A stretch of DNA of 64,000 nt from Harriotta raleighana. Its lineage: Eukaryota. The DNA lies in NCBI GenBank assembly GCA_050575255.1, contig JBNZDD010013714.1, positions 3,569,143 through 3,633,142 of the forward strand, written 5' to 3'. A program made the translations under genes and the position numbers. Below, piece by piece: positions 35,175-62,046 of the stretch (position 1 is its first letter; every line of letters starts with the position of its first letter). The notes under the pieces were generated by a model. The model was given only the letters and a program-made list of their open reading frames with translations. It had not been told where the DNA came from and did no database searches.

Positions 35175-35970
35175 GGCACTGTTCTCAACCCCCTCACAAC
35201 AGCCACAATCATCCCCATCCTAAAGAATCCTTCGCTGGACACATCCCTACTTTCCAGTTACCAGCACATCTCCAACCTCCCTTTGCTTTCCAAGGTCTTT
35301 GAAAGAGTTCTGACAAAGGGTCGTGGACCCGAAACATTGACTCACTTTCCTTTCTCCATGGCTGCTGCCTGACTTGCTGAGTTTCGCCAGCAACTTCTTT
35401 GTTTTTTTTCCCTGAAAGAGTTGTTGCTCTTGGCTCTTTCCATTCCTCTCATTCCCTCCAATTGTATTCACAGAAACTGCTCTGGTCAAGGTCATAAAAT
35501 TAAATCCTGTCCATCTGTGACCAGGGTTCCCTCTGCCTCCTCGACCTCTCTGCCGCCTTTGACACTGTGGACCATTCAATCCTCCTCCTTTTCGCTCAAA
35601 CTTCAAGCTTCTGTGCTTGACTGGTTCAGATCCTATCTCTCACACCATCTCCACTTTGTCTCCACCATGGTTTCTTTTCCAGTCCCTGCACCTGTGTTCC
35701 TTCGGGCTCTGTCCTTGTTCCCTTCCTCTTCAACCTCTACATGCTTGGTGACATCATCCACAGACATGGGGAAAATTTCGGATGACACCAACTCTATCTC
35801 TCTGCCTCCGCCCTCAATTCCAGGACTACTGACGTCCTGACAGACTGTCTGTCACACATCCAAGTCCTGGAGGAAAGACAACTTTCTACAGCTGAACATC
35901 AGCAAGAACAAGGGCCTTCTGATTGGCTCGCGCCAGCGCCTCTGCCCCTCAGGCACTGGCAATATCAGCA
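35175..35970 (+). mobile_element. L2 LINE reverse-transcriptase domain fragment (pseudogenised)
   Basis: ATIIPILKNPSLDTSLLSSYQHISNLPLLSKVFERV, TETALVKV, LLDLSAAFDTVDHSILL, VLDWFRSYLS, SDDT, NFLQLNISK; frameshifted; interrupted at 35310-35412. Confidence 0.92.
35310..35412 (+). mobile_element. ~100-bp hammerhead-motif (Penelope-like) mini-element, copy 1
   Basis: ctgacaaagggtcgtggacccgaaacattgactc..gctgcctgacttgctgag..T-rich end; 10-bp TSD TGAAAGAGTT at 35300-35309 and 35413-35422 inside the L2 RT frame. Confidence 0.8.
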
Positions 35971-36309
35971 TCCACAGAAACACACTCCACCATTTTAAAG
36001 GTACTGAGTGACTTAATACTGTACCGCAACTTCTGAAAGCCTTGAACTATAGTATTCATTTTAAGCAATTTATCGTTTTAATCCTTGAAGTTTAACATTG
36101 TTTAAACATTACTTCCTCTGTGCAATCTATTGCGAGATGTTAAGACTCCTCCAGGAAACTGGGAGAGGAGAGAGGCCAAATCTCGTAAACATGATAAGGA
36201 AAACAAATGAAATTTTGAAATGCTACAACAGCACTCCATGTTCATCCGGTAGTATTTGGAAGCCTAATCAGATACCCATCCTCGTCAGTCACAGTAAAGT
36301 TAATCAGTT

Positions 36310-36497
36310 CTTTGACCATGCCTTTCGACCACCCTCCTTTTCGCCCCCCTGCCCCCCAACCCCCCCTCCCCCAACCTCCACCCTCCCCGATCCTCAGCTC
36401 AGGTCTAAAACACTGACCGTCTGTCCAGTAGCTTGGGATGTTCTCCGGATGTGGAAGGCGCTATACTAATGTAATGTCAATTTGTTCTTGTTGTTGC
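36310..36497 (+). mobile_element. L2 3' end fragment
   Basis: ctttgaccatgcctttcg, C-rich UTR, cttgggatgttctccggatgtggaaggcgctata..ttgttgttg. Confidence 0.6.
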
Positions 36498-37154
36498 TGA
36501 TCATAAATGTACACCGAGGACGACAGCACAAAGACACAGTAAGATGGACCTTTGTGGTGAAAATCTGGCAGCTTTTACACTACTTGCTCACTTTTAACAG
36601 CAAGGCAAACATTTCCACGGCGTTTCCTTCTGTGGAGCAGAGTCAGTAACGATTGCAGTCAATCCTACACATCCTCCCTCAGAGGACATAGGCAGCAATT
36701 TGGCTGCCGTGTTTCACACACAAATATACAGTCAATTTTCCCACTCTCCTTCCCCCTACCCCTCACCCCCTGCTCTGGTCTCTACCTTTCTTCCCTCTTT
36801 TCTTCTCCCTACTCCGATCCCTCCCCACCCTGCTCTGGTCCCGACTCTGGGACATTGATGTATTTTGTGAAGCACTTTGAGACGTTGATAAATTGTAGGA
36901 AGCGCTATATAAATGTAAAGATTATTATTTATTTACTATTATTATAGGCCAGACCTGATGTACGTCAGCTATACGCTTGATGCTATTTGTATCTAAATAA
37001 TTTATAAATTTCATTTCATGTAAAGATTATAAAGTCAAATAGTCAAACATGCGGAACTTGCGGAAACTATTTTGGAAAATACTTCAAATGCTCCTCATCC
37101 TCCGAATCTTCCTATTTTTGCTGTTGACTTTCGGCTCACAGTAAAACTCTGATG

Positions 37155-37460
37155 AAGTGCTGGGGGAGATGCTGCTTCATTCGAGGTCCTGTCCTTCGGA
37201 TGATGCGTTAAACCGAGACCCCATCCACCTATCGAAGCGGACACCAAAGATCCTGTGCATCTACTTGACAAGAGAAAAGAGTCTCTCCGGACATCCCAGC
37301 CAACATTCCCAGATAAATTTGGCCATTCACTTCATGGCTGTTTGTGGATTTGCTGGAGCATTCACCTACAACTACACAGTGACGACACTTCACAGTAAAA
37401 TCCTAGGAAACACTTTGAGACGGCTTGATGTCATACATCAAATACAAGGATTATTATCCT
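37155..37460 (+). mobile_element. DeuSINE family B, 5'-truncated
   Basis: gtgctggggga..tcgaggtcctgtccttcggatgatgcgttaaaccgagaccccatc..aaagatcc..tail caaggattattat. Confidence 0.75.
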
Positions 37461-38660
37461 CATAATAATTAATTAAAAATGAAAGGTACAGAAAAGATCT
37501 CCGGTGAAGATTATGAAACGTTCTTCGACTTATTCAGTATGAATGACCTCTCCAAAGTCTTCTCCCCTCACCCCCAGATAAAGCCTACTTTCAGAGTTAG
37601 GTGGGGAGGGGGGTAAATGGATTAAACTCACTGGAAAATTCTCATGGATTAGTGCCTCAGAACTCAAATGTAATAATTTGCAGACAATTATGTAGTTACT
37701 TTTTTAAAATAAAAGTTCTGAATGAAAATGAAAACCTGCAAAGTCTTAACTGAAGCGTAAGGAGCCGTTGAGTTTGGGGGCAACCCAACAGCTCAATGTG
37801 TAACGAGGACAGTGGGCAACCAGATCAGTGCAGATTTTTCCCTTTGTAAAATCAAACGCTTTATCAATCTAATCATTCAGCATAATATAATGACGTTCTG
37901 ATGCACATTCTAAGGCCCAGTAATCTGCTAATCCTAAAGTTTTTATGATGAAAGATTCTATCAATCCCATGAACTTCAGGTGGCTTCGCGAAAGAAAAAG
38001 GTGATGGGGTTTTGTGAGATAATGACATAGGTGGGTGAGATTTAACTCAGAAAATAAGAATTAGGATAGTCTGAGAACACAGGACAATAGAGAACACACA
38101 ACACAATGCAGCTATCTAGGCAATCATTCATTACAAGACAAACAACAAGAGACACATGCTATGCTGGAAATGAAACAATAATTTAAATGAATCTAACCCG
38201 GCAGCAAATGGACAAACCTCAAAGAGATACACGCTTACTATAAATCAGAAAGCTATTCTGAAATTAATTTTAAAGCCCTCAACAACTGGAGTGAATGGCG
38301 AGTAGGATATTTTTTACCTTCTTATCTGGAGTGACTGTGGCAACTGAACTAGAGTTACTCCTGAATCAACATAGCTCCAGTGTGTGCGTCCTCCACTGTC
38401 AGGGATTTTCTCAAGATAGAACAGGGATGAAGCTGGAGTCTATAGACTCCTGGGATCCCTCCCACACTGCCAAGAACTGACGTCATGCACTTCCTGTTGC
38501 TCCTGATTATGATCGAAACTAGTAGCGTTTATTATGTCAGTAGCTGTTGTGAAAGGCTGCACCAACCCATGTAAGGGTAGCCTGTAATACCACTTTAGAT
38601 AAAACTGTTCCACACGTAGCCCTGTGGCCATCCCAGTGTACAAAACATACAAGATCCAGA

Positions 38661-60200: not shown

Positions 60201-60400
60201 ACACTCTCTGTATAATTTATAGAAAGTGCTCCTCAGCCTGAACCACTGTGCATAAAGCTTTAAAAAAGTGGGTGTGTGTGAGCATTAAACTGGCAGTCAC
60301 CTCTCACTCAGTCTTGAGCTGTTGCATTTCCTATCTAATAGGATTTTGTTCCTAACCTACAGCTAAGTCTCTAACACTCACCCCAGCAGCAGCACAAATG

Positions 60401-60437
<37 letters not shown>

Positions 60438-61572
60438 AGAGAAGAATTCCCACTAGAGCTTTAAACAACAGCTAAAAATCAAATCAGGATCAAACGCCTT
60501 TACTGATAACTTTTATTTTCTTTTGCTGGCATAAGCAGCAAATACAGGACAGTTTTGCACAACGAGTGGCTGAAACCTTTCCTTATCCCTACCCCCCTCT
60601 TCCATTAACTCTTTCGTTTCCTCGTTTAGCATTCCCTCCCCCCAGCTTGCAAACTCCCCTCTTCCCCTCCTCCAACACCCCCCCCCACCACACACTCACT
60701 CAAAAAAAATTCTGTTTTAAAAAAACTACATTTCTAGAGGATTATTAGGTTTTTTTTAGAAAAACTTAGAATAACAATAATCTTTGTATTTGATATACAG
60801 CCTTGTCAGATTGTCGAGACGTCTCAAAGCGCTTTGCAGGATATACTGGAAACTGAATTGACTGTGTATTTCGTGAGCGAAAAATGGAAGGTGATTTAAA
60901 TTTAGAATCGGTTTAGAAAGACTGCGAATCAGCTCAAGGTGCTGAGGCAGTATTTAGTATTTCTGAATAAGCCTCTCCTGGGCTCAGCAAAACTTTCTCT
61001 ACTTCTGTCCTCTCTTCCTCTCAGTAACTCTGGGACGAAACCAGAGAACAAACATGTATGTATCCCTGGGGTTTGCTGTTAAGGCAGGCGTTCACAGTGA
61101 GTGAGTGAGTGAGTGGCTGACATGATACTCCAGTGAATAAAGCTGATCGCTCACAATGCCCCCTGCAGTTTCCTCACACCACTTTGGCTTTCATTGCGTA
61201 CTTCCCAAGTGTGGGAATTTCTACAGAAGCGCAGGCCATTTCTCCATAGTCTCCTAGCAATAAAGTACACAAATCTGTACTGTTGTCCACAGAGAGGATA
61301 TGTCCAGACTGACTCCTTGACCACAGATAGAGAAAAAAGGGCTCGTTTCCAGGAAAATGTTCTTGACTATGCATTTTACTGATAGCGTCTGTGAAGATCA
61401 TCACTGTAATGGACAGCCCTGAATGAAGCCATTCTCCACGTCCCATCTGGCCTTAACTGGTATCCTCTCTTCCACTATTCCAAACCCAATTTCCTCCCCC
61501 TTCCCCATGGGTTTTGAGCAACTTGCTCCATTTTCAACTTTAAAAAAAAAACTCAAAATACTGCAGATGCCA

Positions 61573-61941
61573 GAGTCCTGTAGTTCAGTGGTTGGCCTTA
61601 TAAGCGTGAGATCTGTGTTCGAATCCAGGCAGGACGAAACCTTGAGCAAGTTTCCTTACTCGACATGCCTAATAATGATTCCTCCAAAAAAAACAATAAT
61701 TGGTCATTTCAATCCACAACTGTTTGTGGGACACTGTTGTGCGCAATTGGCTGCCATGTTTTGCCCACAAAAAAAAATCAATTATTTCACTTTACAGTAT
61801 ATTCTGAAGTGCTTTGAGACATCTAGAAGACGTGANAAAAATCAATTATTTCACTTTCCAGTATATTCTGAAGTGCTTTGAGACATCTAGAAGACGTGAA
61901 AAGCTCTATATCAAATGCAAGGATTATTATTATTATTATTA
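61573..61941 (+). mobile_element. SINE family A (contains an N-linked assembly duplication)
   Basis: gagtcctgtagttcagtggtt..gttcgaatccaggc..tail (TTA)n. Confidence 0.88.
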
Positions 61942-62046
61942 TCTGAAACAGATCAGAAATCGCTGAGAACACTCAGCAGGTCAGGCAGCATCTATTGAGA
62001 AAAGAAGGTGAGTCAACGTTTTGGGTTCACGACCCTTCGTCAGAAA
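61941..62046 (-). mobile_element. Hammerhead-motif mini-element, copy 4
   Basis: Minus strand ttctgacgaagggtcgtgaacccaaaacgttgactcacc..atagatgctgcctgacctgctgagtgttctcagcgatttctg. Confidence 0.8.

Follow-up and report, generated by a model that had tools for sequence, protein, structure and literature searches.

The window analyzed here, a stretch of 64,000 nucleotides from Harriotta raleighana (assembly GCA_050575255.1, contig JBNZDD010013714.1, positions 3,569,143 to 3,633,142, forward strand), harbors four copies of a dispersed ~100-bp repeat built around a minimal hammerhead ribozyme, together with a RIPOR/FAM65-family gene and an abundant short interspersed element (SINE; Table 1). The best reading of the four repeats is that they are decayed end stubs, comprising hammerhead and tail, of an endonuclease-bearing Penelope-like element (PLE) and likely arose as short run-off reverse transcripts of uncut mRNA (probability about 0.62). 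An earlier inspection of the letters, here called the sequence-only reading, had placed the four copies at these positions, and both BLAST (pairwise identity 82-93%, E 1e-22 to 4e-36) and a profile search recover them. The profile of the four copies finds no fifth in the window (next match E 0.02). Four copies per 64 kb, against ~1.4 expected from the genome sample described below, is not clearly unusual.

Table 1. Features of the window (positions in nucleotides from its first letter).
Feature	Position	Strand	Remarks
PL48 (PF15903) exons, RIPOR/FAM65-family gene	1711..18392	-	
Copy 1, target-site duplication, left arm	35300..35309	+	10 bp
Copy 1	35306..35412	+	Penelope hammerhead-plus-tail stub, second subfamily type
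Copy 1, target-site duplication, right arm	35413..35422	+	10 bp
LINE-type reverse transcriptase remnant	35200-35700		older than copy 1
Copy 2	~52639/52642-52743	+	stub; core 2-nt deleted or 5'-truncated at G8 (52642)
Copy 3, target-site duplication, downstream arm	55138..55150	-	13 bp
Copy 3 (locus L001)	55151..55255	-	stub; 5' start at the helix I border (55255)
Copy 3, target-site duplication, upstream arm	55253..55265	-	13 bp; overlaps the first 3 nt of the element
CT-rich tract	59020-60170		long, low complexity
Copy 4	61941..62045	-	stub
SINE, examples	9883-10177, 46546-46865, 50483-50787, 54255-54537, 55339-55642, 63491-63820		tRNA-derived, (ATT)n end

None of the four copies retains an intact core. 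In copy 1, G8 is replaced by A at 35315 and the G of the palindrome by A at 35336, close to the predicted cut position (35338/35339). The final 4 nt of its left target-site duplication are also the first 4 nt of the element, a junction microhomology, and the copy interrupts, in register, an older reverse transcriptase (RT) remnant of the long interspersed nuclear element (LINE) type that, from its motifs, is presumably L2/CR1. Copy 3 combines U4>A at 55250 with a palindrome G>A and a private C17, and copy 4 combines G12>A at 62022 with a stem II G>A at 62027. The core lesions of these three copies are as the sequence-only reading had described them. Copy 2, to which a 2-nt deletion had been ascribed, does have a disrupted core, and C has become T elsewhere in stem II and in the palindrome, but the missing bases may reflect 5' truncation at G8, beside an imperfect 7-bp duplication, instead of a deletion. 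Copy 4 shows no clear target-site duplication, and its 3' end adjoins the (ATT)n tail of a SINE in opposite orientation. No remnant of a Penelope open reading frame (ORF) was found within the window. All four copies are dead, as had been supposed.

In the family as a whole the motif is complete. The majority sequence, tallied over ~130-165 rows that were not selected on the hammerhead, consists of helix I AGUU/GACU (4 bp, one of them U-G), the core CUGAYGA, an extra A, helix II GGGUC/GACCC with a 3-nt loop, GAAA and the palindrome ACGU, which stands in place of helix III and can be extended to AACGUU. Every core position is intact, the boxes CUGANGA and GAAA and an NUH triplet all being present; the extra A lies between positions 9 and 10.1 in 98% of rows and is followed by the G10.1-C11.1 pair. 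The triplet at the predicted cut, previously given as GUY, is GUU, with T in 97% of 164 rows. Across the 1.10-Gb genome, 341 sites match the intact 33-nt core pattern exactly, and the reversed control has no such site. The mapping onto a minimal type I hammerhead and the assumption of an intact master core, both made from the four damaged copies, are thus borne out.

These features are common to the minimal hammerheads of metazoan PLEs, in which the type I core lacks helix III and carries an additional base between 9 and 10.1, together with the G10.1-C11.1 pair, palindromic positions 15.2-16.2 and 4-5 bp in helix I (Cervera and de la Pena, 2014, PMC4209133). Solo minimal hammerheads derived from truncated Penelope elements were described in the same report, where they likewise number thousands of mostly solo copies, and the motif is recorded there in the fish elements Xena, Poseidon and Neptune. 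Helix II differs, with 5 bp here vs. 7-8 bp in the Schistosoma families, and a single homogeneous family is found here vs. many covarying ones (PMC4209133). As objects the four window copies are largely ordinary, the mini-ribozyme motif of this class being already known.

Covariation in stems I and II had been proposed as a check, but nine pairs compared with 500 shuffles give no convincing excess (at best 7 vs. 3.5, at a CpG-prone pair, 17/500), and the copies decay after insertion. Two further structures, the second hairpin and a helix that the post-hammerhead segment might form with the tail, are pairable, with no covariation seen; pair 354-422 was not used there, its majority not being a standard pair. 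In an intact copy the hammerhead fold of the monomer has an ensemble probability of 0.005, and neither the four window copies nor two intact copies show unusual fold stability (z-scores -1.0 to +0.4). Matches to other minimal hammerhead families in the genome stay at control level (28 vs. 27 in the control). Published minimal hammerheads cleave weakly and as multimers only (PMC4209133). For the master ribozyme, cleavage after GUU would require a dimer formed via the ACGU palindrome and would probably be weak or protein-assisted.

The stubs decay neutrally, mostly at CpGs: the catalytic CpG positions G8 and G12 are mutated in 85/299 cases vs. 94/311 for the G of CpGs outside the core (P 0.66), core and stems are preserved in 12/111 full copies, and the median divergence of copies from the family majority is 7%.

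The link to Penelope comes from longer copies. At locus L018 a GIY-YIG frame (PF01541, E 3.7e-5) lies upstream of the hammerhead. Among 30 loci chosen by similarity to this frame, the query locus included, hammerhead and tail lie 3' of the endonuclease match on the same strand in 20, at a spacing of 199-264 nt in 17 (one of them the query locus). Six loci (L151, L158, L163, L166, L168, L169) within 20 partly overlapping regions, up to 10 kb long, show RT motifs, endonuclease and hammerhead in collinear order. The best homolog of the L158 frame, the longest genuine open stretch, is a shark protein, 55% identical, and RVT_1 is present in most of the 120 matches listed for this frame; three short fragments gave no Pfam match. 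Hammerhead and tail also occur 5' of the ORF, beginning ~165 nt before its ATG: the distance is 160-170 nt in five of the eight loci measured and 137 nt in one that is internally deleted, the other two having no resolved spacing. The full unit is pLTR(hammerhead)-tail-ORF(RT, CX4CxxC linker, GIY-YIG)-pLTR(hammerhead)-tail, where pLTR denotes a pseudo-long terminal repeat. Because hammerhead and tail flank the ORF on both sides, the ~100-bp unit is the terminus of the element. The family reaches ~40 nt further 3' than the sequence-only reading had noted, to a second tail end, and the long copies extend upstream into the Penelope ORF. The genomic regions also show apparent ORFs of 750-1600 aa, but these occupy all six frames and are attributed to runs of N.

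This linkage bears directly on whether the motif could be a chance hammerhead look-alike or the 3' untranslated region (UTR) of a CR1/L2 LINE, which is now extremely improbable. Copy 1 does lie within a LINE-type RT remnant, covariation is not clear, and Rfam returns no hammerhead family at E<=10 in the window or at six loci, several with an intact core. However, copy 1 splits the remnant and has its own duplication, all the listed features of minimal hammerheads are present, and the absent Rfam match is likely due to the missing helix III. The look-alike is refuted because the motif is tied to RT and GIY-YIG ORFs at both ends; a LINE 3' UTR is ruled out, as the unit sits 3' of a GIY-YIG ORF and not of an APE-RT ORF2. 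The Penelope connection proposed by the sequence-only reading holds.

A CX4CxxC linker between RT and endonuclease is readable at L062 and L081 and in part at L063 and L084, and a CX2-5CxxC linker is present in six of the first eight homologs. This motif points to a Neptune-type element, a placement made by the linker only; a first label, Poseidon, was dropped on the same criterion. With endonuclease-bearing PLEs, Neptune among them, the family shares 5' truncation, partial tandems and inverted 5' copies, an optional 30-40-bp tail, the CX2-5CxxC linker, and TATA and initiator-like motifs in a pLTR (Arkhipova et al., 2013, PMC3846280; Craig et al., 2021, PMC8557442).

Abundance was estimated from 60 arbitrarily placed 10-kb regions on large contigs (588 kb excluding N), which contain 13 matches (11 with inverted pairs counted once) vs. 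none in the reversed control. Scaled up, the genome holds ~2.4x10^4 matches (roughly 1.3-4.2x10^4). Target duplications of at least 10 bp flank 14 of 47 non-inverted stubs (one dubious) vs. 1 of 182 mismatched pairs; they are individual, 10-16 bp long, and include those of window copies 1 and 3. An inverted arm is found in 16 of 63 stubs. The 3' ends form two clusters ~40 nt apart, 24/60 at profile positions 396-414 and 16/60 at 442-451, which match the known Penelope tail. Kilobase-scale head-to-head inversions, patterned as in the inverted stubs, also occur in ORF-bearing copies (L152, L159, L163, L167).

Numerous copies of fairly even length, each with its own target duplication, would also suit a self-propagating, non-autonomous Penelope derivative of ~100 bp, SINE- or retrozyme-like and with a master of its own, as the sequence-only reading had proposed. 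Non-LTR retrozymes are reported to originate from pLTRs as non-coding, hammerhead-bearing units and to occur in a cartilaginous fish, where units average 363 bp (bioRxiv 10.64898/2026.07.22.740005), and ~390-nt two-hammerhead units do exist at other loci of this genome. However, such retrozymes are tandem units with at least two complete hammerheads (same source), whereas the window copies are broken, solo and at least 2.4 kb apart. The stubs lack any upstream pLTR, no stub-specific sequence was seen in them, and both subfamily types come in short and long forms. Moreover, the autonomous element has this same sequence at both of its termini, the 5' ends of the stubs are continuous with the long copies, and longer ORF-bearing copies share the 5' border start. 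A separate non-autonomous element is accordingly improbable, and the stubs are read as dead-on-arrival remnants of the autonomous family.

In the two-hammerhead units at L182, L184, L188-L190, L191 and L198, hammerhead, tail and the first ~220 nt of the ORF are fused directly to a second hammerhead and tail, and the same type recurs at L175, L176, L186, L187, L194, L195 and L199. Their period is ~385-416 nt, near the mean in the cartilaginous fish cited above, and a short microhomology, CCCAG, marks several junctions; carrying two hammerheads in tandem, they are retrozyme-like deleted derivatives. Another variant, a chimeric master amplified to several loci (L081, L089, L093, L109, L151, L159, L161, L163), has an older repeat ending in (GTT)n inserted just 5' of the hammerhead, lacks part of the second hairpin and extends ~750 nt past the tail in a stretch common to these loci. 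Near-identical Penelope fragments are also found in local tandem duplications of 3.7-5.5 kb (L151-L152 on G000:C13565, L153-L154, L188-L190), possibly segmental repeats or assembly duplicates.

The most informative property of the stubs is where they begin. In a sample of 59 copies chosen only by their 3' pattern (60 minus one at a contig edge), the helix I border is reached by 36, of which 22 stop within its 11-nt window (0.056 per nt), compared with 2/55 at the predicted cut site (0.0045 per nt), which lies 33 nt downstream, and 0.002-0.012 per nt upstream of the border. The same 5' start (profile positions 301-311) is seen in 7/13 random matches, in all four window copies and in 6/10 copies that continue into the ORF. 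No earlier report of this pile-up or of the family was found in a search that left most subscription papers, Repbase/Dfam and one supplement of PMC4209133 outside; the passages of PMC4209133 consulted name no cartilaginous fish and do not describe an accumulation of 5' ends at helix I.

Sequence at the border carries a second signal. The base 5' of the border A is C in 47/47 long copies, but among 37 stubs it is C in 18, G in 13, A in 6 and T in none, G thus accounting for 13/19 non-C stubs (P 1e-4). G again predominates among genome matches to a pattern that rules out C: the first 100 of 156, counted by hand and still including three probable local duplicates, give 57 G, 28 A and 15 T (P 2e-11). 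T precedes the border G in 42 of the 57 G cases and a pyrimidine in 43 (P 8e-5 vs. 0.5), and in four of seven stubs with extra bases between duplication and border, these bases end in TG and do not derive from the target. In the long copies, a TTAAAA-like AT-rich box lies at -28 to -31 from the border in 29/50. The border itself reads CCAGTT, which is initiator-like.

Together, these ends suggest that the stub start at the front edge of the ribozyme likely marks the 5' end of an uncut RNA template. Transcription would begin at the helix I border, directed by the initiator-like CCAGTT and the upstream TTAAAA box. The RT of the element would then prime internally at the tail, as does the Poseidon element of Anolis carolinensis (PAc) in vitro, where initiation occurs at two tail-defining sites, the RNA used is predominantly uncleaved and none of the RNA reads end at the cut site (Frangieh et al., 2024, PMC11167929). 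Initiation at the 5'-proximal tail would give a copy of 100-140 nt running off at the RNA 5' end, often with an added G or TG contributed by copying of the cap, by fold-back onto the helix I complement, or by both, and the extended cDNA would be joined to the target. An untemplated 5' G has been interpreted as a copy of the cap in L1 (PMC9341517); a pure cap origin is weakened here by the excess of TG. Having lost the upstream promoter region, the stubs would be dead on arrival and would decay neutrally.

The same fold-back offers another account, in which the cDNA end folds on the helix I complement and self-primes or is released wherever the RNA starts, so that the border is a structural stop. 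The added strings TG, GTG and AGTG fit the register of a helix I extension, the inverted arm of L327 is joined exactly in that register, about a quarter of the stubs are inverted as counted above, and self-priming has been inferred for a rotifer Penelope (PMC3846280). On the other hand, inspection of the sequence gives the cDNA end only three pairs when no base is added, which is unlikely to displace the RNA:DNA hybrid, long copies pass the border unhindered (14 of the 36 copies at risk), and initiator-like and TTAAAA motifs at canonical spacing would be a coincidence. As the whole explanation, a structural stop is unlikely.

Several observations weigh against run-off from an uncut, capped transcript. 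Both the start site and the cleavage are predicted from genomic sequence. The border G need not derive from a cap, because the TG before the border fits helix I fold-back, and in some stubs, copy 1 and L335 among them, the target duplication includes the G. Stops are concentrated at the border but not confined to it, since 17 of 53 at-risk copies stop within the hammerhead (309-331); the profile boundaries are uncertain by several nt, and the 5' samples, being first-listed exact matches, are biased toward little-decayed copies and small contigs. The non-CpG core is slightly more conserved than the linker (56/1319 vs. 152/2682 mutated, P 0.058). The 20 regions, each up to 10 kb long, yielded no intact ORF, and every copy read is broken. 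In other Penelope elements, the Drosophila virilis start site lies further upstream (PMC2377424), and a model with an antisense template has been argued (PMC3846280).

The border also resembles a 3' splice site, with a pyrimidine tract and CAG immediately 5' of the core in long copies, and in D. virilis Penelope the 5' end of helix I coincides with the end of an intron (PMC4209133). The stubs could then stem from spliced or splice-cleaved RNA. Such an origin is very doubtful, since the stubs have no common upstream exon, their flanks varying instead, and most retain the AG or G of the supposed intron end; intron retention, moreover, is known for Penelope elements.

Run-off reverse transcription of uncut mRNA thus remains the favored origin of the stubs, and it agrees with PAc in several respects: both have a hammerhead near the pLTR/ORF junction and two tail-defining 3' ends, and uncleaved RNA is the template in PAc as it would be here (PMC11167929). 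The differences are that in PAc the ATG lies within the hammerhead, initiation takes place 111-118 nt into the ORF at an AC-rich stem-loop, whereas the 3' ends of the present stubs fall in a U/G-rich 5' UTR, and that the ORF here has a Neptune-type linker (PMC11167929). The role of the Penelope hammerhead and the cause of the many solo and inverted copies are still open in the field (PMC8557442). The value of the end statistics is that they give genomic support to the in vitro finding of an uncleaved RNA template, and that they predict a start site and a 5'-junction signature which can be tested in a species where the family is active. More tentatively, solo hammerheads might be a fossil map of the Penelope cycle in vivo: a start at the first base of helix I, an uncut ribozyme, tail-primed run-off at the capped end, and a cap-derived base that completes a helix I fold-back of the cDNA and so seeds self-priming and head-to-head inverted repeats. 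If so, the hammerhead fold would shape insertion structure independently of cleavage.

The host gene lies at the other end of the window. It spans 1.7-21.8 kb on the minus strand, with an apparent first coding exon near 21.75 kb, and from its N-terminus the paralog is presumably RIPOR1. Copies 3 and 4 had been described as sense to RIPOR1; they do share its strand, but given the positions of the PL48 exons and the first coding exon they lie 33-40 kb upstream of the latter, and no effect of the copies on the gene is indicated. A long CT-rich tract of low complexity separates copies 3 and 4. The SINE of the window is very abundant and tRNA-derived (Rfam tRNA matches; repeat families), and elsewhere in the genome four Penelope stubs (L233, L271, L346, L348) are inserted in one and the same part of it.

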